A stretch of 64,000 nt of DNA from the NCBI RefSeq assembly GCF_054482595.1, contig NZ_CM137008.1; one strand, given 5' to 3'. The position numbers and the translations under genes are program-made. Positions within the stretch are counted from its first letter, which is position 1. Each line of letters begins with the position of its first letter. The notes under the pieces are model-generated. The model was not told the DNA's origin. It ran no database searches and saw only the letters and a program-made list of their open reading frames with translations. Below are positions 1,713 to 34,797 of the stretch, piece after piece.

Positions 1713-3014
1713 ATGGCGCAATTCTACTCTGCAAAACGACGCACGACGACGCGTCAGATCATAACCGTTTCAGTCAACGACCTCGACTCTTTTGGTCAGG
1801 GCGTGGCGCGACATAACGGCAAAACGCTATTTATCCCCGGATTATTGCCGCAGGAAAACGCGGAAGTTACTGTTACTGAAGATAAAAAACAGTATTCCCG
1901 CGCTAAAGTCGTACGCCGGTTAAGCGATAGCCCGGAACGCGAAACGCCACGCTGTCCTCATTTTGGCGTATGCGGCGGCTGTCAGCAACAACACGCCAGC
2001 GTGGATTTACAGCAGCGAAGCAAAAGTGCGGCACTCGCCCGATTAATGAAACACGAAGTCTCTGAAGTGATCGCCGATGTTCCCTGGGGCTATCGCCGTC
2101 GCGCGCGTTTAAGTCTGAACTACTTACCGAAAACACAGCAACTTCAGATGGGGTTTCGCAAAGCGGGCTCCAGTGACATTGTCGACGTTAAACAATGCCC
2201 CATTTTAGTGCCCCAACTTGAAGCATTGCTGCCCAAAGTCAGGGCATGCCTGGGCAGCTTACAAGCTATGCGCCATCTTGGTCATGTTGAACTAGTACAG
2301 GCAACCAGCGGCACGCTGATGATTTTGCGCCATACCGCACCGCTAAGTTCGGCAGATCGCGAAAAACTGGAACGCTTTTCGCATTCTGAAGGCCTGGATC
2401 TGTATCTCGCCCCCGATAGTGAGATACTCGAAACCGTCTCTGGTGAGATGCCCTGGTATGACTCAAACGGGTTGCGCTTAACTTTTAGCCCGCGCGATTT
2501 TATTCAGGTCAATGCGGGTGTGAACCAAAAAATGGTAGCGCGTGCGTTGGAATGGCTGGATGTGCAACCTGAAGATCGCGTACTGGATCTGTTCTGCGGT
2601 ATGGGCAACTTTACACTGCCATTGGCGACACAAGCAGCCAGTGTGGTGGGTGTAGAAGGTGTTCCGGCGCTGGTGGAAAAAGGCCAGCAGAATGCGCGTC
2701 TTAATGGCTTACAGAATGTGACGTTTTATCATGAAAATCTTGAAGAAGATGTCACAAAGCAGCCGTGGGCGAAAAACGGCTTCGATAAAGTGTTGCTGGA
2801 CCCGGCGCGAGCAGGTGCCGCAGGTGTTATGCAGCAAATTATAAAACTGGAACCTATTCGTATAGTTTATGTATCCTGTAACCCTGCAACGCTGGCTCGG
2901 GATAGCGAAGCGTTATTAAAAGCAGGATATACCATTGCGCGACTGGCGATGCTGGATATGTTCCCACACACGGGACATCTGGAATCGATGGTACTTTTCT
3001 CGCGCGTTAAATAG
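1713..3014 (+). CDS. rlmD: 23S rRNA (uracil1939-C5)-methyltransferase RlmD (RumA)
   Basis: 433 aa ORF starting [21 protein letters not shown]; Cys cluster and SAM-methyltransferase motif (DLFCGMGNF). Confidence 0.93.
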
Positions 3015-3061
3015 TTGCGATTTGCCGATTTCGGCAGGTCTGGTCCCTAAAGGAGAGGACG

Positions 3062-5296
3062 ATGGTTGCGGTAAGAAGTGCACATATCAATAAGGCTGGT
3101 GAATTTGATCCGGAAAAATGGATCGCAAGTCTGGGTATTACCAGCCAGAAGTCGTGTGAGTGCTTAGCCGAAACCTGGGCGTATTGTCTGCAACAGACGC
3201 AGGGGCATCCGGATGCCAGTCTGTTATTGTGGCGTGGTGTTGAGATGGTGGAGATCCTCTCGACATTAAGTATGGACATTGACACGCTGCGGGCGGCGCT
3301 GCTGTTCCCTCTGGCTGATGCCAACGTAGTCAGCGAAGATGTGCTGCGTGAGAGCGTCGGTAAGTCGGTCGTTAACCTTATTCACGGCGTGCGTGATATG
3401 GCGGCGATCCGCCAGCTGAAAGCGACGCACACTGATTCTGTTTCCTCCGAACAGGTCGATAACGTTCGCCGGATGTTATTGGCGATGGTCGATGATTTTC
3501 GCTGCGTGGTCATCAAACTGGCGGAGCGTATTGCTCATCTGCGCGAAGTAAAAGATGCGCCGGAAGATGAACGCGTACTGGCGGCAAAAGAGTGCACCAA
3601 TATCTACGCGCCGTTGGCGAACCGTCTTGGGATTGGGCAACTGAAATGGGAGCTGGAAGATTACTGCTTCCGTTATCTCCACCCGACCGAATACAAACGC
3701 ATCGCAAAACTGCTGCATGAACGCCGTCTCGACCGCGAACACTATATCGAAGAGTTTGTCGGCCATCTGCGCGCTGAGATGAAAGCTGAAGGCGTTAAAG
3801 CTGAAGTGTATGGTCGTCCGAAACACATCTACAGTATCTGGCGCAAAATGCAGAAAAAGAACCTCGCCTTCGATGAGCTGTTTGATGTGCGTGCGGTACG
3901 TATTGTCGCCGAGCGTTTACAGGATTGTTATGCCGCACTGGGGATAGTGCACACTCACTATCGCCACCTGCCGGATGAGTTTGACGATTATGTCGCTAAC
4001 CCGAAACCAAACGGTTATCAGTCTATTCATACCGTGGTTCTGGGGCCAGGTGGCAAAACCGTTGAGATCCAAATCCGCACCAAACAGATGCATGAAGATG
4101 CAGAGTTGGGTGTTGCTGCGCACTGGAAATATAAAGAGGGCGCGGCAGCTGGCGGCGCACGTTCGGGACATGAAGACCGGATTGCCTGGCTGCGTAAACT
4201 GATTGCGTGGCAGGAAGAGATGGCTGATTCCGGCGAAATGCTCGACGAAGTACGCAGCCAGGTCTTTGACGACCGGGTGTATGTCTTTACGCCGAAAGGT
4301 GATGTCGTTGATTTGCCTGCGGGATCAACGCCGCTGGACTTCGCTTACCACATCCACAGTGATGTCGGACACCGCTGCATCGGGGCAAAAATTGGCGGGC
4401 GCATTGTGCCGTTCACCTACCAGCTGCAGATGGGCGACCAGATTGAAATTATCACCCAGAAACAGCCGAACCCCAGCCGTGACTGGTTAAACCCAAACCT
4501 CGGTTACGTCACAACCAGCCGTGGGCGTTCGAAAATTCACGCCTGGTTCCGTAAACAGGACCGTGACAAAAACATTCTGGCTGGGCGGCAAATCCTTGAC
4601 GACGAGCTGGAACATCTGGGGATCAGCCTGAAAGAAGCAGAAAAACATCTGCTGCCGCGTTACAACTTTAATGATGTCGACGAGTTGCTGGCGGCGATTG
4701 GTGGCGGGGATATCCGTCTCAATCAGATGGTGAACTTCCTGCAATCGCAATTTAATAAGCCGAGTGCCGAAGAGCAGGACGCCGCCGCGCTGAAGCAACT
4801 TCAGCAAAAAAGCTACACGCCGCAAAACCGCAGTAAAGATAACGGTCGCGTGGTGGTCGAAGGTGTTGGCAACCTGATGCACCACATCGCGCGCTGCTGC
4901 CAGCCGATTCCTGGAGATGAGATTGTCGGCTTCATTACCCAGGGGCGCGGTATTTCAGTACACCGCGCCGATTGCGAACAACTGGCGGAACTGCGCTCCC
5001 ATGCGCCAGAACGCATTGTTGACGCGGTATGGGGTGAGAGCTACTCCGCCGGATATTCGCTGGTGGTCCGCGTGGTGGCTAATGATCGTAGTGGGTTGTT
5101 ACGTGATATCACGACCATTCTCGCCAACGAGAAGGTGAACGTGCTTGGCGTTGCCAGCCGTAGCGACACCAAACAGCAACTGGCGACCATCGACATGACC
5201 ATTGAGATTTACAACCTGCAAGTGCTGGGGCGCGTGCTGGGTAAACTCAACCAGGTGCCGGATGTTATCGACGCGCGTCGGTTGCACGGGAGTTAG
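3062..5296 (+). CDS. relA: GTP pyrophosphokinase RelA ((p)ppGpp synthetase I)
   Basis: 744 aa ORF starting MVAVRSAHINKAGEFDPEKW; full-length RelA. Confidence 0.95.
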   Translation: MVAVRSAHINKAGEFDPEKWIASLGITSQKSCECLAETWAYCLQQTQGHPDASLLLWRGVEMVEILSTLSMDIDTLRAALLFPLADANVVSEDVLRESVGKSVVNLIHGVRDMAAIRQLKATHTDSVSSEQVDNVRRMLLAMVDDFRCVVIKLAERIAHLREVKDAPEDERVLAAKECTNIYAPLANRLGIGQLKWELEDYCFRYLHPTEYKRIAKLLHERRLDREHYIEEFVGHLRAEMKAEGVKAEVYGRPKHIYSIWRKMQKKNLAFDELFDVRAVRIVAERLQDCYAALGIVHTHYRHLPDEFDDYVANPKPNGYQSIHTVVLGPGGKTVEIQIRTKQMHEDAELGVAAHWKYKEGAAAGGARSGHEDRIAWLRKLIAWQEEMADSGEMLDEVRSQVFDDRVYVFTPKGDVVDLPAGSTPLDFAYHIHSDVGHRCIGAKIGGRIVPFTYQLQMGDQIEIITQKQPNPSRDWLNPNLGYVTTSRGRSKIHAWFRKQDRDKNILAGRQILDDELEHLGISLKEAEKHLLPRYNFNDVDELLAAIGGGDIRLNQMVNFLQSQFNKPSAEEQDAAALKQLQQKSYTPQNRSKDNGRVVVEGVGNLMHHIARCCQPIPGDEIVGFITQGRGISVHRADCEQLAELRSHAPERIVDAVWGESYSAGYSLVVRVVANDRSGLLRDITTILANEKVNVLGVASRSDTKQQLATIDMTIEIYNLQVLGRVLGKLNQVPDVIDARRLHGS

Positions 5297-5309
5297 GCCG
5301 AAATTTGCT

Positions 5310-5352
5310 CGTATCTACAATGTAGATTGATATATACTGTATCTACATATGA
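5310..5352 (+). promoter_or_regulatory. mazEF promoter/operator region with palindromic repeats
   Basis: atctacaatgtagat palindrome and second tgtatctacatatgata copy directly upstream of mazE; matches the autoregulated mazEF operator known from K-12. Confidence 0.5.
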
Positions 5353-5373
5353 TAGCGGTTTGAGGAAAGGGTT

Positions 5374-5622
5374 ATGATCCACAGTAGCGTAAAGCGTTGG
5401 GGAAATTCACCGGCGGTGCGGATCCCGGTTACGTTAATGCAGGCGCTCAATCTGAATATTGATGATGAAGTGAAGATTGACCTGGTGGATGGCAAATTAA
5501 TTATTGAGCCAGTGCGTAAAGAGCCCGTATTTACGCTTGCTGAACTGGTCAACGACATCACGCCGGAAAACCTCCACGAGAATATCGACTGGGGAGAGCC
5601 GAAAGATAAGGAAGTCTGGTAA
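5374..5622 (+). CDS. mazE: MazE antitoxin
   Basis: 82 aa [30 protein letters not shown]; overlaps mazF start. Confidence 0.95.
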
Positions 5623-5957
5623 TGGTAAGCCGATACGTACCCGATATGGGCGATCTGATTTGGGTTGATTTTGACCCGACAAAAGGTAGCGAGCAAGCTG
5701 GACATCGTCCAGCTGTTGTCCTGAGTCCTTTCATGTACAACAACAAAACAGGTATGTGTCTGTGTGTTCCTTATACAACGCAATCAAAAGGATATCCGTT
5801 CGAAGTTGTTTTATCCGGTCAGGAACGTGATGGCGTAGCGTTAGCTGATCAGGTAAAAAGTATCGCCTGGCGGGCAAGAGGAGCAACGAAGAAAGGAACA
5901 GTTGCCCCAGAGGAATTACAACTCATTAAAGCCAAAATTAACGTACTGATTGGGTAG
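5622..5957 (+). CDS. mazF: MazF mRNA interferase toxin
   Basis: 111 aa [38 protein letters not shown]. Confidence 0.95.
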   Translation: MVSRYVPDMGDLIWVDFDPTKGSEQAGHRPAVVLSPFMYNNKTGMCLCVPYTTQSKGYPFEVVLSGQERDGVALADQVKSIAWRARGATKKGTVAPEELQLIKAKINVLIG

Positions 5958-6027
5958 TGTTACTAACTCACTTCTATTCTGGTCACAGGTTTCCACCTGA
6001 CAGACCCGCAATTTTCAGGACAATTCA

Positions 6028-6819
6028 ATGAATCAAATCGACCGTTTGCTCACTATTATGCAGCGCCTGCGCGATCCGGAAAACGGCTGCCCGTGGGATA
6101 AAGAGCAGACATTTGCCACCATTGCGCCTTACACCCTTGAAGAAACCTACGAAGTGCTGGACGCCATCGCCCGTGAAGATTTTGACGATCTTCGCGGTGA
6201 ACTGGGCGATCTGCTATTCCAGGTGGTGTTTTACGCGCAAATGGCTCAGGAAGAAGGGCGCTTTGACTTTAATGATATTTGCGCTGCTATTAGCGATAAA
6301 TTAGAGCGTCGCCATCCGCATGTTTTTGCTGATAGTTCTGCCGAAAACAGTAGTGAAGTGCTTGCCCGTTGGGAGCAAATCAAAACCGAAGAGCGCGCGC
6401 AGAAAGCGCAGCATTCGGCGCTGGACGATATTCCTCGTAGTTTACCGGCTTTAATGCGTGCGCAAAAAATCCAGAAACGTTGCGCCAACGTTGGCTTCGA
6501 CTGGACGACGCTTGGCCCAGTGGTTGATAAAGTCTACGAAGAGATCGACGAGGTGATGTACGAGGCACGGCAGGCTGTTATCGACCAGGCTAAACTGGAG
6601 GAGGAAATGGGTGACCTGCTGTTTGCCACGGTCAATCTGGCTCGTCATTTAGGGACAAAAGCGGAAATCGCATTGCAAAAAGCGAACGAAAAATTCGAGC
6701 GTCGTTTTCGCGAAGTGGAGCGTATTGTTGCCGCGCGTGGATTGGAAATGACAGGTGTTGACCTCGAAACAATGGAAGAAGTCTGGCAACAGGTAAAACG
6801 GCAGGAAATTGATCTCTAA
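6028..6819 (+). CDS. mazG: Nucleoside triphosphate pyrophosphohydrolase MazG
   Basis: 263 aa ORF MNQIDRLLTIMQRLRDPENGCPWDKEQTF. Confidence 0.93.
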   Translation: MNQIDRLLTIMQRLRDPENGCPWDKEQTFATIAPYTLEETYEVLDAIAREDFDDLRGELGDLLFQVVFYAQMAQEEGRFDFNDICAAISDKLERRHPHVFADSSAENSSEVLARWEQIKTEERAQKAQHSALDDIPRSLPALMRAQKIQKRCANVGFDWTTLGPVVDKVYEEIDEVMYEARQAVIDQAKLEEEMGDLLFATVNLARHLGTKAEIALQKANEKFERRFREVERIVAARGLEMTGVDLETMEEVWQQVKRQEIDL

Positions 6820-6832
6820 GGGAATTACGCGG

Positions 6833-6874
6833 TCAAGCGCCATTTGTGTCATTTTTTAAATGACAAGCGCTTGA
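6833..6874 (+). terminator. Nested imperfect hairpin downstream of mazG (possible terminator or protein-binding palindrome)
   Basis: tcaagcgc ... tgtcattt ttt aaatgaca ... gcgcttga; outer 8-bp and inner 8-bp arms; only a short T-run follows. Confidence 0.35.
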
Positions 6875-7031
6875 TTTGCGTCAAAAACATTTACCCCAAA
6901 GGGGCTATTTTCTCACTCCTGATTTCAATAGTGCGCTGGCGAAGAGGAGGGATAATGAAAGTTTGTGGCACAGGTCATGTTCGGGTATACTGCTTTCCCG
7001 TCCTGGTTATTCCATCGTCTTTTCAACCTAA

Positions 7032-8684
<1,653 letters not shown>

Positions 8685-8756: not shown

Positions 8757-10070
<1,314 letters not shown>

Positions 10071-10090
10071 GACTGACTTTATCTGATTTA

Positions 10091-10121
10091 AAAATGCCAG
10101 CCTCCGGGCTGGCATTTTTTA
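10091..10121. terminator. Rho-independent terminator shared by convergent eno and TPM operon
   Basis: aaaaa tgccagcc tccg ggctggca tttttt; GC stem flanked by A-run and T-run, so it works in both directions. Confidence 0.8.
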
Positions 10122-10129
10122 TGGTTGAG

Positions 10130-11023
10130 TTACCAGCGGCCGGATGCGCCGCCACCTCCAGAAGAACCGCCCCCGCCGCTAAATCCGCCGCCACTTGAGC
10201 CTCCACCGGAAGAGGATGAAGAAGAACCTTTTCTTGAAGCTCTTTCTTTACTGAGTTTTTTGTATTTGGCGCGTAGCTTTTTATTGACGATAAGCCAAAA
10301 AATAACCAGTGGTACGATCGCAAAAGGCGTTAACATACCGCAGGCAACGATTAAATTGGTCCATGGTCCTGGCTCGGCAACATAGAGGAATACCATCCCG
10401 TAAATGGCGCCAGTGAGAGTGATCCAGGGTAAATTCGACGGATCGGTAAAAACAATAAAATATGAAAGTACCGCCAGCAATATAATTACAGCAAGCGATA
10501 ATGGAATAGGGGGATTGATACTGTAATAATCCCCCCTGTCTTCCGGTAATTCACCATTTAACAGAAGCGCGCCGATATTTTCGCTTGCCAGTGTTAATCC
10601 ACCCATCAGGTCATCACTTTTGAAGGCAGGGATCAATATATCCCTGATAATCTTCGCCGCTTGCAGGTCGGTAACCACCCCTTCCAGCCCGTAGCCAACC
10701 TCAATACGAACAGCATGATCCTCCCAGGCAACCAGAAGTAAAATACCATCGTTTCTCTGCTTATCTCCCAGTTTCCAGCTATCAAAAACCCTTGTAGCAT
10801 ATTGTTCAATGGAATCGTCTCCGGTGGACGGCACTACTAATACAGCGACCTGCGCCCGTGTTTTATGTGTAATATCCTGCAGTTGCTGTGTCAGTGATTG
10901 TTGTTCAGAAGTGCTTAACGTACCAGTAATATCGGTCACCTGTTGGCGCAGTTCCGGCACAGCAATTTGCTGGGCAAGCCCAGGAAGACACCACAAAGTG
11001 AATAGAATAAAGATTAAGCGCAT
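10130..11023 (-). CDS. ygcG: TPM-domain (YgcG-like) membrane protein, paralog 1, with Gly/Ser-rich C-terminal tail
   Basis: ORF 10130..11035; likely ATG at 11021-11023 giving MRLIFILFTLWCLPGLA signal peptide; TPM core GILLLVAWEDHAVRIEVGYGLEG; predicted TM helices; tail SGGGGSSGGGGASGRW. Confidence 0.8.
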   Translation of the reverse strand: MRLIFILFTLWCLPGLAQQIAVPELRQQVTDITGTLSTSEQQSLTQQLQDITHKTRAQVAVLVVPSTGDDSIEQYATRVFDSWKLGDKQRNDGILLLVAWEDHAVRIEVGYGLEGVVTDLQAAKIIRDILIPAFKSDDLMGGLTLASENIGALLLNGELPEDRGDYYSINPPIPLSLAVIILLAVLSYFIVFTDPSNLPWITLTGAIYGMVFLYVAEPGPWTNLIVACGMLTPFAIVPLVIFWLIVNKKLRAKYKKLSKERASRKGSSSSSSGGGSSGGGFSGGGGSSGGGGASGRW

Positions 11024-11028
11024 TACGA

Positions 11029-12177
11029 TCACCAACGGCCGGATGAACCGCCGCCTCCTGAAGAACCGCCACCACCGCGGAAAGAATTTCTCGACGAAGA
11101 GCGAGAGTGAGCATTACGATTCCCCGTTTTCCTGTTGCTTTTTTCTCCTGATCCCAGCTTAAGATTGCCAGTAAATTTGGCCACAATGATCAGCAGAACG
11201 ATGCCAGCAATGGTTATTGGACCGATAAAATGATCAATTAACCCAATAATTGTTGAGATGAATGCAATATCTTTAATACTGGCGAACACCAGGCACCATC
11301 CCACAATAATTATCAGCATCACGACAAACAATGAATTTCGTCCTGATTCACGAACCTGCGGAGTCTTCTTTTGTTTTTTCACTTTAGCGTTTTTATTTTT
11401 TGGGGCCAGCATCATAGGAAATACGCGGCACAAATTAAAAACTACCGCGAGACGCTGCTTGCAGGTTGTTGCTAACAATAAACTAAAACAAACGATCGAC
11501 ACCCGCCGAATGATGACATCGTCCTGAAAGGAGAAAAACCAGACCATAGGGGTAATCATCGATATCATCCATATGCCACGCCGTGGGCGGCTGGCAAATC
11601 GCCAGAGGACAACGATGGCAACGATCATCAGCAGTGTCCAGGCAAGACATGGCAGCGAACGTTGCGGATTAGCAAACAGATGATTGGCTAAAGCATCCAA
11701 AGGGCTAAGGTTCGCTTTGATATGGGTAAACTGTGCGATGCTTTCAATTCCGCCCGTTAATCCAGCAAAGAGATTGTTTTTTTCGAATTCTGGCTGCATA
11801 TGGTAACGAACAATTTGCGCAGCTTGTTCCGGCGGCAACATCTGTTCCAGTCCATGTCCAATCTTCATTGACGCCAGCCCTTCCGGCCATACGACGAGAA
11901 TTAAGATACCTTCGCCATATCGCTTCTCTCCAACGGGTTTCCAGTGATATACCCCGTATCTCTGCGAGGCTGCAAGTTTAATGTTTTTGCCCCCTGTGGT
12001 CGGCGTAACCAACACGGCCACCTGGAAGTGGTTTTGCTGCTCGAGAGTCTGTAATTGTTGAGTTAAAGCAGTTTGTTCTTCTGTCGTTAATGTCCCGGTT
12101 AAGTCAGTCACTGAAGGCAATCGTTCAGCGAATACCTGAAAACCGCATAGCATCAGAAGTAAGAGAAAAATACGCAT
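11029..12177 (-). CDS. TPM-domain membrane protein, paralog 2 (382 aa, extended membrane region)
   Basis: MRIFLLLLMLCGFQVFA signal peptide; TPM core GILILVVWPEGLASMKIGHGLEQ; several hydrophobic segments; Lys-rich linker; tail GGGGSSGGGGSSGRW; stop 5 nt from paralog 1 start. Confidence 0.75.
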   Translation of the reverse strand: MRIFLLLLMLCGFQVFAERLPSVTDLTGTLTTEEQTALTQQLQTLEQQNHFQVAVLVTPTTGGKNIKLAASQRYGVYHWKPVGEKRYGEGILILVVWPEGLASMKIGHGLEQMLPPEQAAQIVRYHMQPEFEKNNLFAGLTGGIESIAQFTHIKANLSPLDALANHLFANPQRSLPCLAWTLLMIVAIVVLWRFASRPRRGIWMISMITPMVWFFSFQDDVIIRRVSIVCFSLLLATTCKQRLAVVFNLCRVFPMMLAPKNKNAKVKKQKKTPQVRESGRNSLFVVMLIIIVGWCLVFASIKDIAFISTIIGLIDHFIGPITIAGIVLLIIVAKFTGNLKLGSGEKSNRKTGNRNAHSRSSSRNSFRGGGGSSGGGGSSGRW

Positions 12178-12191
12178 ATCAATTCCTTTTG

Positions 12192-13115
12192 TTACCAGCG
12201 CCCGGAAGCGCCACCGCCACCAGATGAACCGCCACCACCGCTAAAATTGTCATTGTCGAATGAAGAGGATGACGATGATGAATAGTGGGAGAAAGAATTG
12301 CTTCTTGTATGGCGTGATGGCTGGTTGGCATCACGCATCAAATCCCGAACTTTTTTGCCGAAGGGGGTAAAAGCGATGGCGACAGCCAGGAACGGTGTGG
12401 CGAAGCAGAGTAATGTTGTGAGTACTCCCCAGCTTCCGCTGAAACCTGCTATAGGTAAAACAAAGGCCAGTACAATAGCTGCGAAGCAAATTACTCCCAG
12501 CGTTTTGATATATCCTCTGGCAGAAATAAACGTCAGTACTATCGCCCAGGCTAACAAGGCCCACCAACCGCTAAAAGGTAAAGGGTGATCGGCCGGTGCT
12601 ATCGTCGCTAAATTATTCCCTGCCAAACGGTTTTCAATATCGCTGAGTCCCTTTTGCAAGCCGCCAGCAAGATCACCATTTTTAAATGCCGGAATAATAC
12701 TGTTGCGAATAATTTGCCCGGACTGCGCATCCGTAATAATACCTTCCAGTCCGTAACCGATTTCAATACGCACGGTATGATCCTGCCAGGCGACTAACAG
12801 TAGAACGCCATCATCGCTGTCTTTATCACCCGGTTTCCAGCTATCGAATACCCGCGTTGCGTACTGCTCGATGGTTTCATCGCCTGTTGTATCAACCACT
12901 AACACGACCAACTGTGCGTGGTTTTTTTGCGTCAGGGCTTTAATCTGGTTGGTCAGGGTGTTTACTTCGCTGTTTGTTAATGTGCCGGTTAAGTCATTCA
13001 CATACTTGGGGGATTCAGGTACTGGAATTTGTGTGGCAAACACAGATGAACAGAAGAAAGCCATAAGGAAGATAAAATTTCGCACAGAACTTCCCCGCTT
13101 AATGAGCATTAGCAT
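12192..13115 (-). CDS. TPM-domain membrane protein, paralog 3
   Basis: 307 aa ORF; TPM core GVLLLVAWQDHTVRIEIGYGLEG; TM helices; tail SGGGGSSGGGGASGRW; start ATG at 13115 or 13109, overlapping the lemA 3' end. Confidence 0.75.
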   Translation of the reverse strand: MLMLIKRGSSVRNFIFLMAFFCSSVFATQIPVPESPKYVNDLTGTLTNSEVNTLTNQIKALTQKNHAQLVVLVVDTTGDETIEQYATRVFDSWKPGDKDSDDGVLLLVAWQDHTVRIEIGYGLEGIITDAQSGQIIRNSIIPAFKNGDLAGGLQKGLSDIENRLAGNNLATIAPADHPLPFSGWWALLAWAIVLTFISARGYIKTLGVICFAAIVLAFVLPIAGFSGSWGVLTTLLCFATPFLAVAIAFTPFGKKVRDLMRDANQPSRHTRSNSFSHYSSSSSSSFDNDNFSGGGGSSGGGGASGRW

Positions 13116-13701
13116 TCTGGCTAAAATCTATTGTTGGGGCTTTACTTACTGCGGCGACATCATCCGGTAAATAATTTTTCTTTGGCGTGTAATCCATGAC
13201 CTTTGCGGTTAATACAGCGGGGAATTTGCGGATAGTGACATTATATTGTTCAATGGCTTTAATATATCTTCCTCGCGCAACGGCAATTCTATTTTCACTT
13301 CCTTCGAGCTGTACCATTAAGTTTTGATAGAGTTCCTGAGATTTTAACTCAGGGTAACGCTCACTAATTATCGTTAACTGACCGAGAGTGCGAGTCACCT
13401 GCGCTTGAGCCTGTTGCCAGGCTTGTAATTTTTGTTCATCTCCCGGAGTTTGCTGAAGATCGCTACTGGCGCGATTAGCCTGGCTACGAGCCAATGTTAC
13501 GGCTTCCAGTACATCTCGTTCATGGCTGGAATAACCTTTAATGCTGGCGACAAGATTAGGAATAAGATCGGCGCGACGTTGATATTGATTCAATACCTCA
13601 GACCAGGAGGCGTTAACCTGCTCATCATAGGTTTGAATATCGTTATATCCACAGCCTGATAAATTGAAAATAAATATAATTACGATGAATATTCTGAGCA
13701 T
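13099..13701 (-). CDS. LemA-family protein, probable lipoprotein
   Basis: 200 aa ORF MLRIFIVIIFIFNLSGC with lipobox LSGC; LemA-like helical region; first gene of lemA-TPM-TPM-TPM operon. Confidence 0.75.
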   Translation of the reverse strand: MLRIFIVIIFIFNLSGCGYNDIQTYDEQVNASWSEVLNQYQRRADLIPNLVASIKGYSSHERDVLEAVTLARSQANRASSDLQQTPGDEQKLQAWQQAQAQVTRTLGQLTIISERYPELKSQELYQNLMVQLEGSENRIAVARGRYIKAIEQYNVTIRKFPAVLTAKVMDYTPKKNYLPDDVAAVSKAPTIDFSQNANAH

Positions 13702-13873
13702 GTTTAAATCCCTTTTAATTAATTCCTTAAAACATAATACTCTGCTTCATTTTATTCTTTATGATCTAATCCACTTTTTGCCATAAACCTGCCTGTAACA
13801 GAATGTTAATAAGACATGATTGTTGTGGCAGGATCTGCAATAATTAACAATTATCCACTTCACAGAGAATGCT

Positions 13874-14545
13874 ATGCAGTACCCGATTAACGAGATGTTC
13901 CAGACCCTGCAAGGTGAGGGTTACTTTACCGGCGTCCCCGCCATTTTTATTCGTTTACAGGGATGCCCGGTTGGCTGTGCCTGGTGCGACACCAAACACA
14001 CCTGGGAAAAGCTTGAGGATCGGGAAGTCTCCCTTTTCAGCATTCTGGCGAAGACCAAAGAGAGTGATAAGTGGGGGGCGGCGAGCAGTGAAGACTTGCT
14101 GGCTGTCATTGGTCGCCAGGGATATACCGCGCGGCATGTGGTGATTACGGGTGGTGAGCCTTGCATTCATGATTTGCTGCCACTGACTGACCTGCTCGAA
14201 AAGAACGGTTTTAGCTGCCAGATCGAAACCAGTGGTACTCATGAGGTACGCTGCACACCGAATACCTGGGTTACCGTATCGCCAAAGCTGAACATGCGCG
14301 GCGGCTATGAAGTGTTGTCACAGGCACTGGAGCGAGCCAACGAAATCAAGCATCCAGTGGGGCGCGTACGTGATATTGAAGCACTGGATGAACTTTTGGC
14401 GACGCTGACCGATGATAAACCGCGAGTCATTGCACTGCAGCCGATTAGCCAAAAGGATGATGCCACACGTTTGTGCATTGAAACCTGCATTGCGCGTAAT
14501 TGGCGTTTGTCGATGCAAACCCATAAATATTTAAATATTGCCTGA
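13874..14545 (+). CDS. queE: 7-carboxy-7-deazaguanine synthase QueE (YgcF)
   Basis: 223 aa ORF MQYPINEMFQTLQGEGYFTGVPAIFIRLQGCPVGCAWCDTKH; radical-SAM Cys motif. Confidence 0.93.
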   Translation: MQYPINEMFQTLQGEGYFTGVPAIFIRLQGCPVGCAWCDTKHTWEKLEDREVSLFSILAKTKESDKWGAASSEDLLAVIGRQGYTARHVVITGGEPCIHDLLPLTDLLEKNGFSCQIETSGTHEVRCTPNTWVTVSPKLNMRGGYEVLSQALERANEIKHPVGRVRDIEALDELLATLTDDKPRVIALQPISQKDDATRLCIETCIARNWRLSMQTHKYLNIA

Positions 14546-14883: not shown

Positions 14884-15339
14884 GAGTTCCCCGCGCCAGC
14901 GGGGATAAACCGGCCTGGCGATTTCTCGTCAGGCCTTGCGGTGTGAGTTCCCCGCGCCAGCGGGGATAAACCGTCAGTAAAGCGGCGCCCACTGATATCG
15001 GATTAGAGTTCCCCGCGCCAGCGGGGATAAACCGAGGGGCAGGGAGTGACGCTGGAGCAGGCGATCGAGTTCCCCGCGCCAGCGGGGATAAACCGGGAAA
15101 TTAGGCAAATGTGAACACGGCGGCCCCGAGTTCCCCGCGCCAGCGGGGATAAACCGCCAGTATTTTGTCGTGGATTGCGGGATCACCAGAGTTCCCCGCG
15201 CCAGCGGGGATAAACCGTTGAGTTTGTTCGTAACAACGCGGGTCATCTGGAGTTCCCCGCGGCAGCGGGGATAAACCGGGTACAAAAGAGGCCCCATTCT
15301 GGCAGGGCTCAAGTTCCCCGCGCCAGTGGGGATAAACCA
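14884..15339 (+). CRISPR. Type I-E CRISPR array A: 8 repeats, 7 spacers of 32 nt
   Basis: Repeat gagttccccgcgccagcggggataaaccg at 14884, 14945, 15006, 15067, 15128, 15189, 15250 (c13g variant), 15311 (degenerate terminal); exact 61-bp period. Confidence 0.97.
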
Positions 15340-15793
15340 CCATATAACCCGTTATCTCTTTCTCAAGTTTTTATATTAGCAGTACTCGTAATAAGCAACA
15401 TATCCACGTAACACCTCATGTTCAAAATAGTTCCCCATGCCAGATAAGTTCACAATTATCGATACAAAAAATCAAATTTAATCAAAGTGTTATTTGTATA
15501 ATCCTTAAACCGTTAAGAAATTTTAATGTATTATTTTTTTTAATATTAATTAATGCCTGTTAATTTTTTCTTTAGAATAACAGTGTGTTTTTTAAGCTTG
15601 TTATTCATTGATTAAGTAATAAATCTGGAAATTTGTCTTTGTTTTGAGGCTAATGAGTGGTTTTACATAACCGCCTCTATACGCTGTTGATGAATGGTTC
15701 TTATGAATAAAGATATCCAGTTCATACTTTAAGTGTAAATTGATAAAGTGCGATTCGTATTGTCTTTTATTCTAAAGACATCGAGTGTAGTTA

Positions 15794-31830: not shown

Positions 31831-32130
31831 CGAGCAGCATTCCTGATTTTAAACGTGAACGCCGCTGGAAGAATTATCAGGTATAGAATGGCGTCGGGTG
31901 CTTGAGGCTGTCTGGCGTTAAGCATTCGCGAGGTTCCAGATGGACAAAAGCCCCAGGCGATATTTCTATCAACCTGAGGCTCGCGTTCGAACGTAGCAAT
32001 TCGGATGTTAGTCTCTTCTTTGCAGGGAGGCAAGACATGTGTATATCACTGTAATTCGATATTTATGAGCAGCATCGAAAAATAGCCCGCTGATATCATC
32101 GATAATACTAAAAAAACAGGGAGGCTATTA

Positions 32131-34797
32131 ATGGAACCTTTTAAATATATATGCCATTACTGGGGAAAATCCTCAAAAAGCCTGACGAAAGGAAATGATA
32201 TTCATCTGTTAATTTATCATTGCCTTGATGTTGCTGCTGTTGCAGATTGCTGGTGGGATCAATCAGTCGTACTGCAAAATACTTTTTGCCGAAATGAAAT
32301 GCTATCAAAACAGAGGGTGAAGGCCTGGCTGTTATTTTTCATTGCTCTTCATGATATTGGAAAGTTTGATATACGATTCCAATATAAATCAGCAGAAAGT
32401 TGGCTGAAATTAAATCCTGCAACGCCATCACTTAATGGTCCATCAACACAAATGTGCCGTAAATTTAATCATGGTGCAGCCGGTCTGTATTGGTTTAACC
32501 AGGATTCACTTTCAGAGCAATCTCCCGGGGATTTTTTCAGTTTTTTTGATGCCGCTCCTCATCCTTATGAGTCCTGGTTTCCATGGGTAGAGGCCGTTAC
32601 AGGACATCATGGTTTTATATTACATTCCCAGGATCAAGATAAGTCGCGTTGGGAAATGCCAGCTTCTCTGGCATCTTATGCTGCGCAAGATAAACAGGCT
32701 CGTGAGGAGTGGATATCTGTACTCGAAGCATTATTTTTAACGCCAGCCGGGTTATCTATAAACGATATACCACCTGATTGTTCATCACTGTTAGCAGGTT
32801 TTTGCTCGCTTGCTGACTGGTTAGGTTCCTGGACCACAACGGATACCTTTCTTTTCAAAGAAGATGCACCTTCAGGAATACAAGCGCTAAGAACATATTT
32901 TCAGGATAGACAGCAGGATGCGTGTCGGGTACTGGCGCTGAGTGGCCTTGTATCAAATAAGCGTCGTTATGACGGTGTACATGCCTTACTGGACAATGGC
33001 TATCAACCAAGACAATTACAGGTGTTGGTCGATGCTCTTCCTACAGCTCCCGGGCTGACGGTGATTGAGGCACCTACGGGATCAGGTAAAACCGAAACAG
33101 CGCTGGCCTATGCCTGGAAACTTATTGACCAACAACTTGCGGAGAGTGTTATTTTTGCCCTCCCTACACAAGCTACTGCAAATACAATGCTCAGCAGAAT
33201 GGAAGCGAACGCGAGCCGTTTATTTACCTCCCCAAATCTTATTCTTGCTCATGGTAATTCACGTTTTAACCACCTTTTTCAATCAATAAAATCACGCGCA
33301 TTTACTGAGCAGGGGCAAGAAGAAGCGTGGGTTCAGTGTTGTCAGTGGTTGTCACAAAGCAATAAGAAAGTGTTTCTTGGGCAAATCGGCGTTTGCACTA
33401 TTGATCAGGTGTTGATATCGGTATTGCCAGTTAAACACCGCTTTATCCGTGGTTTGGGAATTGGTCGAAGTGTTTTAATTGTTGATGAAGTTCATGCTTA
33501 CGACACCTATATGAACGGCTTGCTGGAGGCAGTGCTCAAGGCTCAGGCTGATGTGGGAGGGAGTGTTATTCTTCTTTCCGCAACCCTACCAATGAAACAA
33601 AAACAGAAACTTCTGGATACTTATGGTCTGCATACAGATCCAGTGGAAAATAACTCCGCATATCCACTTATTAACTGGCGAGGTGTGAATGGTGCGCAAC
33701 GTTTTGATCTGCCAGCTCATCCAGAACAACTCCCGCCCCGCTTTTCGATTCAGCCAGAACCTATTTATTTAGCTGACATGTTACCTGACCTTACGATGTT
33801 AGAGCGAATGATCGCAGCGGCAAACGCGGGTGCACAAGTCTGCCTCATTTGCAATTTGGTTGACGTTGCACAACTATGCTTCCAACGGCTAAAGGAACTA
33901 AATGACACGCAAGTAGATATAGATTTGTTTCATGCGCGCTTTACGCTGAACGATCGTCGTGAAAAAGAGAATCGTGTCATTAGCAATTTCGGAAAAAATG
34001 GGGAGCGAAATGTTGGACGAATACTTGTCGCCACCCAGGTCGTGGAACAATCACTCGATGTAGATTTTGATTGGTTAATTACCCAGCATTGTCCCGCTGA
34101 TTTGCTTTTCCAACGATTAGGCCGTTTACATCGCCATCATCGTAAATATCGTCCCGCCGGTTTTGAGATTCCTCTGGCAACCGTTTTGCTGCCTGATGGC
34201 GAAGGTTACGGACGACATGAGCATATTTATAGCAACGTTAGAGTCATGTGGCGGACGCAGCAACATATTGAGGAACTTAATGGAGCATCCTTATTTTTCC
34301 CTGATGCCTACCGGCAATGGCTGGATAGCATTTACGATGATGCTGAAATGGATGAGCCAGAATGGGTCATCAAAGGCATGGATAAGTTTGAAAGCGCTGA
34401 GTGTGAAAAGAGGTTCAAGGCTCGCAAGGTTCTGCAGTGGGCTGAAGAATATAGTTTGCAGGATAACGATGAAACCATTCTTGCGGTAACGAGGGATGGG
34501 GAAATGAGCCTGCCATTATTGCCTTATGTACAAACGTCTTCAGGTAAACAACTGCTCGATGGCCAGGTCTACGAGGACCTAAGTCATGAACAGCAGTATG
34601 AGGCTTTAGCACTTAATCGCGTCAATGTGCCATTTACCTGGAAACGTAGTTTTTCTGAAGTAGTCGATGAAGATGGGTTACTTTGGCTGGAAGGAAGGCA
34701 GAATCAGGATGGATGGATCTGGCAGGGTAACAGTATTGTTATTACCTACACTCGGGATGAAGGGATGACCAGAGTCATCCCTGCAAATCCCAAATAA
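32131..34797 (+). CDS. cas3: Cas3 helicase-nuclease (type I-E)
   Basis: 888 aa ORF MEPFKYICHYWGKSS; HD motif region (HDIGKF), Walker A APTGSGKT, DEVH box (VLIVDEVHAYD). Confidence 0.96.
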   Translation: MEPFKYICHYWGKSSKSLTKGNDIHLLIYHCLDVAAVADCWWDQSVVLQNTFCRNEMLSKQRVKAWLLFFIALHDIGKFDIRFQYKSAESWLKLNPATPSLNGPSTQMCRKFNHGAAGLYWFNQDSLSEQSPGDFFSFFDAAPHPYESWFPWVEAVTGHHGFILHSQDQDKSRWEMPASLASYAAQDKQAREEWISVLEALFLTPAGLSINDIPPDCSSLLAGFCSLADWLGSWTTTDTFLFKEDAPSGIQALRTYFQDRQQDACRVLALSGLVSNKRRYDGVHALLDNGYQPRQLQVLVDALPTAPGLTVIEAPTGSGKTETALAYAWKLIDQQLAESVIFALPTQATANTMLSRMEANASRLFTSPNLILAHGNSRFNHLFQSIKSRAFTEQGQEEAWVQCCQWLSQSNKKVFLGQIGVCTIDQVLISVLPVKHRFIRGLGIGRSVLIVDEVHAYDTYMNGLLEAVLKAQADVGGSVILLSATLPMKQKQKLLDTYGLHTDPVENNSAYPLINWRGVNGAQRFDLPAHPEQLPPRFSIQPEPIYLADMLPDLTMLERMIAAANAGAQVCLICNLVDVAQLCFQRLKELNDTQVDIDLFHARFTLNDRREKENRVISNFGKNGERNVGRILVATQVVEQSLDVDFDWLITQHCPADLLFQRLGRLHRHHRKYRPAGFEIPLATVLLPDGEGYGRHEHIYSNVRVMWRTQQHIEELNGASLFFPDAYRQWLDSIYDDAEMDEPEWVIKGMDKFESAECEKRFKARKVLQWAEEYSLQDNDETILAVTRDGEMSLPLLPYVQTSSGKQLLDGQVYEDLSHEQQYEALALNRVNVPFTWKRSFSEVVDEDGLLWLEGRQNQDGWIWQGNSIVITYTRDEGMTRVIPANPK

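Follow-up and report, generated by a model that had tools for sequence, protein, structure and literature searches.

lemA and three TPM-domain paralogues laid out as one operon between eno and queE of Escherichia coli

Introduction

LemA (COG1704) and the YgcG/TPM proteins (COG1512) rank with the most widespread envelope proteins of bacteria for which no function is known. Comparative analyses of the TPM domain argue that it is a chaperone-like assembly factor and judge a phosphatase role unlikely (PMC11237479, PMC12419801), and the TPM protein CcoZ is needed for the activity of cbb3 oxidase (PMC8267372). LemA domains are regarded as membrane-proximal four-helix scaffolds (2026 bioRxiv preprint 10.64898/2026.07.15.738315), and membrane stress in a Flavobacterium sppA mutant induces both lemA and a TPM gene. 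Here, we describe a locus in which both families are encoded side by side. In a stretch of 64,000 nucleotides of E. coli DNA (contig NZ_CM137008.1 of RefSeq assembly GCF_054482595.1; hereafter the window), lemA and three TPM-domain genes, called TPM-A, TPM-B and TPM-C below, lie between eno and queE.

The same interval of strain K-12 holds yqcG (46 codons) and ygcG (290 amino acids, aa), with no lemA between eno and queE. A preliminary description of the window, made from the sequence alone, was right that K-12 has only ygcG and no lemA, and it had missed yqcG, which sits in the place of lemA. It had also called the LemA-TPM pair functionally uncharacterised, and full-text literature searches indeed found no functional study of LemA-TPM pairs, of ygcG or of the locus; the genes themselves are already annotated.

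Four genes with the layout of one operon

The locus runs in the order pyrG, eno, four minus-strand open reading frames (ORFs), queE, a CRISPR (clustered regularly interspaced short palindromic repeats) array and ygcE (Table 1), and its eno-queE interval is 100% identical to that of strain XH990. The tight minus-strand cluster of lemA and three TPM genes was found as previously outlined, with all four genes pointing the same way and closely packed. Spacings are 13 nucleotides (nt) between lemA and TPM-A, and 14 nt between TPM-A and TPM-B; TPM-B and TPM-C are 5 nt apart or overlap by 4 nt, depending on the start taken for TPM-C. A Shine-Dalgarno sequence lies ahead of each of the four starts.

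Two of the starts can be read in more than one way. TPM-A most likely begins with GTG at 13085, since GGGGAA precedes this codon, O157-type strains have ATG there and the Prokaryotic Genome Annotation Pipeline (PGAP) uses it; an alternative ORF of 307 aa from ATG at 13115 would overlap lemA. Of the sizes first given for the TPM proteins, 382 and about 297 aa are therefore retained, and 307 aa is revised to 297 aa for TPM-A. TPM-B has AAGGAA 6 nt ahead of its ATG. For TPM-C, an ATG behind GGTGA yields the 297-aa product, and PGAP instead starts at GTG 11032, which creates a GTGA overlap with the stop codon of TPM-B.

Between TPM-C and the convergent eno lies a predicted bidirectional intrinsic terminator. 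RNA folding of positions 10060-10140 gives -27.7 kcal/mol (z=-3.6), and only one of 200 shuffled sequences folds as well; inside the cluster, no terminator of comparable strength was found. On the strength of the tight spacings and of a single strong terminator placed after the last gene, the four genes have the layout of one operon.

In the window, all four ORFs are intact and in frame to their ends, and the TPM ORFs reach the conserved tail described below, so that the possibility, raised earlier, of the middle genes being pseudogenes does not hold here. Compared with E. albertii, the ratio of nonsynonymous to synonymous substitution rates (dN/dS) is 0.04 for lemA, 0.14 for TPM-A, 0.24 for TPM-B and 0.12 for TPM-C, at dS values of 0.36-0.75. 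These ratios indicate that all four genes are under purifying selection.

Table 1. Features at and near the lemA-TPM locus, in positions of the window (nt, nucleotides; aa, amino acids).
Feature	Position	Strand	Description
eno	8772-10070	+	
Bidirectional intrinsic terminator	10090-10119	.	Between TPM-C and convergent eno; 13-bp stem with A and U runs flanking it
Four-gene cluster	10130-13701	-	lemA and three TPM-domain paralogues
Tail-coding direct repeat in TPM-C	10129-10183	-	Family D1, 55 nt, 80-85% identity among copies
TPM-C	10130-11023	-	297 aa, YgcG family, architecture like TPM-A
Tail-coding direct repeat in TPM-B	11028-11082	-	Family D1, 55 nt, 80-85% identity among copies
TPM-B	11029-12177	-	382 aa, divergent paralogue
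Tail-coding direct repeat in TPM-A	12191-12245	-	Family D1, 55 nt, 80-85% identity among copies
TPM-A	12192-13085	-	297 aa, YgcG family
lemA	13099-13701	-	200 aa, LemA-family lipoprotein; helical-bundle domain predicted periplasmic
lemA-queE spacer	13702-13873	-	172 bp, AT-rich; presumed operon promoter
queE	13874-14545	+	
CRISPR array	14884-15340		Type I-E-like repeats
sok antitoxin RNA (Rfam)	31896-32051		97.5 bits
ORF	32131-34797		888 aa

The three TPM paralogues

The Pfam profile PF04536 (TPM_phosphatase) matches all three paralogues at E<=0.001, with the best value for TPM-A (E=5.6e-41), and members of the cluster carry the NCBI name 'YgcG family protein'. Each paralogue combines a signal peptide (MR-F/I, a hydrophobic stretch and cleavage between A and Q), a TPM core, hydrophobic helices, a strongly basic stretch and a Gly-rich tail, so all three show the architecture of the long TPM proteins of the YgcG family. 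The core motif quoted in the preliminary description fits TPM-A and TPM-C; TPM-B reads GILILVVWPEGLASMKIGHGLEQ instead. The tails follow GGGGSSGGGG[AS]SGRW, with TPM-A and TPM-C ending in GGGGASGRW and TPM-B in GGGGSSGRW, and thus TPM-B differs in having S rather than A at position -5. As proteins, the paralogues are 33-47% identical to one another, and at the DNA level repeats stand out only at the 55-nt tail-coding ends.

TPM-A has three transmembrane helices followed by a K/R-rich stretch and the Gly/Ser tail, and a hydropathy scan of TPM-B gives approximately five transmembrane helices and a Lys-rich loop. From these features we infer that the TPM domains are periplasmic, given the cleavable signal peptide of each paralogue, and that the Gly-rich tails are cytoplasmic, given three or five helices with positive charges after the last (positive-inside rule).

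An AlphaFold2 model of TPM-A (58 homologues) has a mean predicted local distance difference test (pLDDT) score of 78, exceeding 90 in the TPM domain, with helices at residues 173-189, 193-212 and 218-239. The TPM domain of this model adopts the alpha/beta TPM fold. Using Foldseek, it was matched with a probability of 1.00 to 5ANP, 7TBR, 2KW7, 3PVH, 8C7I and 4OA3, with template modelling scores (TM-scores) by target of 0.63-0.90. BA41 (5ANP) is the closest solved relative, with a TM-score of 0.89 and a sequence match at E=1.7e-26 and 33% identity.

Two narrower assignments were considered and set aside. Against the Psb32 equivalog model (NCBIfam NF047379) the proteins score 34.5 and 31.1 bits, with a cut-off of 160, and TPM-B has no match, which leaves them as family members only. 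The Pfam match 'YxzE-like putative bacteriocin' on TPM-A residues 264-302 (E=9e-5) covers the Gly/Ser tail and was treated as a low-complexity match.

TPM-B stands apart within the set. It keeps 29 of 46 family-conserved positions, as against 39-40 for TPM-A, TPM-C, the Klebsiella protein and K-12 YgcG. Eight residues, D31, E70, R78, D92, D102, R106, E114 and D119, are invariant or nearly so in the family and are kept in TPM-A, in TPM-C (with E70 as D) and in K-12 YgcG; the substitutions of TPM-B at family-invariant residues include D119 to P, R106 to S, R78 to Q and E70 to K. Full-length relatives of TPM-B, membrane region included, were found only in E. coli, in E. albertii and under the entry 'MULTISPECIES: Escherichia'. 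The E. albertii copies of TPM-B, one of them at 7546-8682 of its locus, end in GGGGASDR or GGGGASGR, without the otherwise invariant terminal Trp.

The LemA lipoprotein

The lemA product matches Pfam PF04011 at E=5.6e-48 over model positions 1-149 of 149, and the LemA profile matches PDB entry 2ETD ('lemA protein', the only solved LemA protein) at E=1e-50. Together with the profile, PDB-sequence and fold comparisons of the TPM proteins, these results bear out both family assignments of the preliminary description. A comparison with the MamQ equivalog model (NCBIfam NF040966) gave 89.9 bits with a cut-off of 250, so LemA is treated as a family member only; the MamQ and Psb32 models were the only ones in NCBIfam to match any of the four proteins. 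AlphaFold2 predicts long helices at residues 2-67, 72-104 and 106-141 with a pLDDT of approximately 80.

The N-terminus consists of a signal peptide, MLRIFIVIIFIFNLSG, followed by CGYND, with the lipobox LSGC after the hydrophobic h-region. The anchor expected of a LemA-family protein is thus present, as a lipid rather than a transmembrane helix. As the lipobox is kept in the 15 proteobacterial LemA homologues that were read, LemA should be a periplasmic lipoprotein whose helical-bundle domain is held at the membrane by a lipid anchor. Lipoproteins without Asp at position +2 are, by the standard sorting rule, directed to the outer membrane, and residue +2 of LemA is Gly, which would place the protein there.

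No close relative of LemA was found on a genuine plasmid or phage; the only close match among plasmid records, at 100%, is to a 4.9-Mb E. coli entry that is evidently chromosomal. Phages of Enterococcus (23 records) and of Listeria (4 records) encode members of the LemA family.

Ancestral state of the locus and origin of K-12 yqcG

Related species carry lemA and TPM genes at this site. The order in Klebsiella is queE-lemA-TPM (296 aa)-eno, E. albertii has lemA with three TPM genes, and E. marmotae lacks TPM-B but has lemA, TPM-C and a TPM-A that is intact, though not called in the annotation. Orthologues of E. coli and E. albertii are 87% (TPM-A), 80% (TPM-B) and 92% (TPM-C) identical. As orthologues are this similar and paralogues far less so (31-47%), the triplication predates the split between E. 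coli and E. albertii, in line with the earlier view of the paralogues as an old set.

The K-12 allele retains traces of the longer form at both ends. On the eno side, the last 141 nt before eno, spacer included, are 97% identical between the end of K-12 ygcG and that of TPM-C, which is the copy closest to K-12 ygcG in DNA and has a TPM core 70% identical to it. On the queE side, 207 nt of K-12 are 84% identical to the upstream region of lemA and reach into the first 35 nt of the gene (K-12 yqcG, 3946-4086 of the K-12 locus, compared with window 13631-13873). The signal-peptide codons ATT ATA TTT ATT TT(C/T) of lemA, encoding IIFIF, recur in frame inside yqcG, and the position of the lemA ATG is occupied by the codons CAT GTC. 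Judged from this 5' homology and the in-frame IIFIF codons, yqcG of K-12 preserves at its 5' end what is left of the lemA start. The further suggestion that yqcG is an internally deleted lemA was unsupported, as the alignment score of its 3' part was reached by 71 of 300 shuffles.

The arrangements in Klebsiella, E. albertii and E. marmotae, taken together with the lemA relic in K-12, give moderate confidence that lemA belonged to the ancestral form and that the form seen in K-12 is derived, and the ancestral form of the eno-queE locus probably had all four genes. Most likely, then, the K-12 allele has decayed or was replaced, and the additional 2.7 kb is not an insertion. The source of K-12-type ygcG outside E. 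coli could not be traced in a protein search that was saturated by E. coli alleles of 81-98% identity.

Variation among E. coli genomes

A survey of 5426 complete E. coli genomes confirmed that the locus is strain-variable. lemA is present in 1454 genomes and missing from 3972 (73%), TPM-B occurs in 1114, and at least 80% of the whole interval, which represents the four-gene form, is found in 1102; approximately 340 genomes have lemA without TPM-B. Among the genomes without lemA, those that were looked at have a reduced allele, in which yqcG contains the 5' relic of lemA and is accompanied by one divergent ygcG. Besides the K-12 haplotype there is a second class of ygcG alleles, with approximately 81% protein identity and a frameshifted yqcG. 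Strain EC0885 shows another arrangement, in which lemA is followed by a full-length TPM-A-like gene and an unrelated ORF for a predicted membrane protein of 120 aa; this ORF (2603-2965 of its locus, annotated hypothetical) lies between TPM-A and eno and replaces TPM-B and TPM-C.

Losses within the four-gene form are also seen. The O157-type strain 137 has all four genes with a TPM-A that stops at 224 aa, and this premature stop of the O157 lineage, which removes the last transmembrane helix and the tail, is found on at least 1000 contigs; the shortened gene was read at 3851-4525 and 2688-3362 of two O157-type loci, the second being that of RV06. In O157:H7 RV06, a culture mutant, the interval is shorter by exactly 1163 bp, corresponding to TPM-B. 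The tail-coding direct repeats lie 899 and 1163 nt apart, and since the length lost in RV06 equals the spacing of two of them, the data fit recombination between these repeats as a way in which TPM copy number changes. In HZDC01 (4209-6146 of its locus), two IS1 copies bracket a deletion of the whole lemA/ygcG-queE-CRISPR-ygcE region downstream of eno.

PGAP flags TPM-A as a pseudogene ('incomplete, missing C-terminus') in XH990 (6344-7015 of its locus) and EC0885 (3235-3906 of its locus). In XH990 the flag spans only the first 224 codons, beyond which the ORF stays open up to the conserved tail, and 642 contigs are recorded with exactly this 297-aa protein. The pseudogene call seems to be an artefact, brought about by how common the 224-aa allele of O157 is.

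LemA-TPM loci outside Escherichia

To place the operon in its wider family, 80 lemA loci were surveyed at one genome per species, nearly all from Proteobacteria. In 59 of them the next gene is a same-strand and often overlapping TPM gene of 280-350 aa ending in W; on several of the other contigs, the sequence stops before a gene downstream of lemA could be seen. A short TPM protein of approximately 170 aa is added in 33 loci; the example that was read (8135-8659 of its locus) has no signal peptide, and the short protein is presumably cytoplasmic. Outside Escherichia, the canonical system would thus have three parts, namely a lipoprotein in the periplasm, a TPM protein that spans the membrane and a second TPM protein in the cytoplasm. 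Among the 80 loci, three long TPM genes next to lemA were seen only in Escherichia.

When the flanking ORFs of the 80 loci were clustered, no family besides lemA, long TPM and short TPM occurred in more than 10 loci. A recurrent 'family' of 38 loci was rejected as an antisense shadow ORF typical of GC-rich genomes.

The C-terminal tail

Over 58 sequences the tail reads GGGGASGxW, with A at -5 in 56 sequences, S at -4 in 57, and G at -3 and W at -1 in all 58. In the AlphaFold2 model of TPM-A, the last residues (GASGRW; window 12192-12218) form a beta-strand at 292-296, the final block has a mean pLDDT of 89, and approximately 35 disordered residues with pLDDT below 50 precede it. Since a strand assigned by DSSP needs a pairing partner, the model offers a lead that the tail may dock onto a beta-sheet, perhaps one belonging to a TPM domain. 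Docking in cis would be topologically impossible if the tail is cytoplasmic; a cytoplasmic TPM domain, for example that of the short paralogue, would fit.

A bolder extension is that the invariant GGGGASGxW acts as a beta-strand 'plug' on a TPM domain, and that tail-to-TPM strand complementation lets LemA-YgcG systems assemble, or signal, across the inner membrane, as a trans-envelope stress device with LemA in the outer membrane. The tail would then bind the short TPM protein of the cytoplasm in loci that encode one; in Escherichia, docking would involve some other partner or take place between paralogues. We regard this as a long shot. If true, it would have as corollaries that YqcG, the 'envelope stress' small protein of K-12, is the translated wreck of lemA and that the haplotype alters the PhoP-bound region upstream of queE.

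Upstream spacer and regulation

The spacer between lemA and queE presumably holds the operon promoter. Its queE-proximal 90 nt or so are identical to K-12 and similarity decays beyond them. As only these nucleotides next to queE are shared, the two allele types may differ in the control of lemA or yqcG and of queE.

In K-12, the region between queE and ygcG is bound by sigma-S RNA polymerase in chromatin immunoprecipitation sequencing (ChIP-seq) and genomic systematic evolution of ligands by exponential enrichment (SELEX) experiments (PMC4447067, PMC5493296). Furthermore, phospho-PhoP binds both the first 300 bp upstream of queE and the 300 bp beyond, and deletion of yqcG raises queE expression (PMC4974570). 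RefSeq names K-12 YqcG a 'cell envelope stress response protein'. PhoP-box-like matches with two mismatches each are present in the lemA-queE spacer of the window at 13701-13717 and 13784-13800; such matches are enriched in the whole window (30 against 14.8 expected) and singly prove nothing.

Neighbouring features of the window

One gene away from the operon, the CRISPR array has type I-E-like repeats (GAGTTCCCCGCGCCAGCGGGGATAAACCG). Farther along the window are an Rfam sok antitoxin RNA and the 888-aa ORF listed in Table 1, which presumably sits where K-12 has cas3.

Proposed function and alternative explanations

We infer that the four genes form a self-contained, non-enzymatic module for maintenance or assembly of the envelope, and put the probability of this reading at roughly 0.45. 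The TPM domains would serve membrane complexes, or the membrane itself, as auxiliary or chaperone-like subunits at the periplasmic face. This role is suggested by the fold matches to Psb32, TLP18.3, LMTP1 and the supercomplex subunit, along with the published work on TPM assembly factors and CcoZ (PMC11237479, PMC12419801, PMC8267372). LemA would be the constant partner of the TPM proteins: the scaffold view of LemA domains comes from the 2026 preprint (10.64898/2026.07.15.738315), and the pairing of lemA and a long TPM gene on one strand in 59 of 80 loci argues for a functional linkage. The family-invariant GGGGASGxW would link the assembly to a cytoplasmic partner, which in other Proteobacteria is plausibly the short, signal-peptide-less TPM protein encoded next. 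Within Escherichia, the paralogues may have subfunctionalised, with TPM-A and TPM-C as canonical members and TPM-B combining a degenerate TPM pocket with a membrane domain confined to Escherichia. As with the K-12 allele, stationary phase or envelope stress probably governs expression; the binding of sigma-S polymerase and PhoP to the K-12 spacer and the RefSeq name of YqcG provide this lead.

Several observations weigh against the assembly module. The topology of the TPM proteins is drawn from hydropathy and charge only. An AlphaFold2 model of LemA linker-fused to the periplasmic domain of TPM-A (34 paired sequences) gave two folded but undocked domains with a predicted template modelling score (pTM) of 0.47, which leans negative on a defined complex. 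The loci of Escherichia and Klebsiella lack the short TPM protein that we suggest as a partner of the tail, and yet the tail is still conserved there. A scan with the sigma-70 consensus returned no convincing minus-strand site upstream of lemA. Moreover, E. coli can do without the module: 73% of complete genomes lack lemA, the O157 lineage has a shortened TPM-A, and one culture mutant has lost TPM-B. Finally, the TPM domain retains many invariant acidic and basic residues, as might also be expected of an enzyme or of a protein that binds a metal or ligand.

The last point leads to an enzymatic explanation, in which the TPM domains are periplasmic acid phosphatases or ATP/ADP nucleotidases, LemA and the membrane anchors position them, and the paralogues differ in substrate. 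The family was named for a reported phosphatase activity of TLP18.3, BA41 has been reported as an ATPase/ADPase (as cited in PMC11237479) and is the closest solved relative of TPM-A (TM-score 0.89, 33% identity), and the eight charged residues are kept in TPM-A, TPM-C and K-12 YgcG. We nevertheless consider catalysis unlikely, as two comparative analyses favour assembly over phosphatase activity (PMC11237479, PMC12419801) and the TPM proteins whose structures were solved in context serve as non-catalytic subunits or assembly factors. Four of the eight residues are lost in TPM-B, which yet remains under purifying selection (dN/dS 0.24), and a periplasmic enzyme would leave both the invariant cytoplasmic tail and the constant LemA partner unexplained.

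The variability of the locus invites two other explanations, both of which appear to be quite improbable. The cluster could be a decaying, redundant leftover in E. coli that is kept by drift and by linkage to eno and queE, as the absence of lemA from 3972 of 5426 genomes, the 224-aa TPM-A on at least 1000 contigs of the O157 lineage, the lack of TPM-B in RV06 and E. marmotae and the IS1-mediated deletion of the whole region in HZDC01 would suggest. However, the four ORFs are intact here, dN/dS is 0.04-0.24 at dS 0.36-0.75, the gene order is kept in E. albertii and the tail motif is kept across copies. Alternatively, the coexistence of divergent haplotypes could reflect a conflict module, excluding phages, colicins or contact-dependent toxins, or a receptor under diversifying selection. 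At least four haplotypes share the site (the K-12 type, the second ygcG class, lemA with three TPM genes, and lemA with one TPM gene and the 120-aa membrane protein), a CRISPR array is one gene away, and LemA homologues occur in Enterococcus and Listeria phages. On the other hand, none of the four proteins matches any PADLOC-DB 2.0 family at E<=0.01, so no known defence system is involved, and neither genuine E. coli plasmids nor phages yielded a close relative. The haplotype borders lack mobility genes, LemA-TPM is a stable unit of two or three genes in varied chromosomal contexts across Proteobacteria, and lemA is strongly conserved (dN/dS 0.04).

The natural alleles of E. coli, with zero to three TPM genes and with or without lemA at one site, provide a ready-made genetic series with which to look for the function in the best suited model organism. 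Conclusions based on K-12 miss the partner protein, as K-12 has no LemA, and the GGGGASGxW end is a precise, testable motif. There are also practical by-products: YqcG can be explained as a relic of the lemA start, and an intact gene was recognised behind a pseudogene flag in at least two RefSeq records.

Comparison with known systems

The yqcG-ygcG locus of K-12 (b2778 region) occupies the same eno-queE site. Its YgcG has a signal peptide, a TPM domain and transmembrane helices and an identical tail, GGGGSSGGGGASGRW; the 3' 141 nt are 97% identical to the end of TPM-C, and the queE-proximal spacer is identical. It differs in having one TPM gene, whose product is 38-44% identical to TPM-A and TPM-C, and yqcG in the lemA position. 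The proteobacterial operons of lemA, long TPM and short TPM, for example in Pseudomonas, Xanthomonas, Bradyrhizobium and Burkholderiales, encode a LemA lipoprotein and then a TPM protein with transmembrane helices that ends in GGGGASGxW; they have one long TPM gene and sometimes a short one, whereas Escherichia has three long genes and no short one.

The fold of TPM-A is shared with the solved TPM proteins BA41 and BA42 (Bizionia), Rhom172_1776, PG0361, TLP18.3, Psb32, LMTP1 and the TPM-fold subunit of the mycobacterial CIII2CIV2 supercomplex. The photosynthetic and respiratory members differ in that their client complexes are known, namely photosystem II for Psb32 and TLP18.3, CIII2CIV2 for the supercomplex subunit and cbb3 oxidase for CcoZ. 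The LemA family, including T. maritima TM0961 (PDB 2ETD), magnetosome MamQ and Listeria LemA, has a domain that is matched end to end with a predicted bundle of long helices; the anchor is here a lipobox rather than a transmembrane helix. Bacillus subtilis YdjH, which was compared by description only, belongs to an operon with a pspA homologue (ydjFGHI), and its partners are PspA and band-7 proteins rather than LemA.

What is new here is the population and ancestral picture of the locus, the proposed origin of yqcG, the repeat-mediated changes in copy number that the alleles suggest, the Escherichia-only TPM-B, the definition of the tail and the putative three-part system. None of this is categorically new, as the genes are annotated in more than 1000 genomes and LemA-TPM pairing is widespread, and the operon is a lineage-specific variant of that pair.

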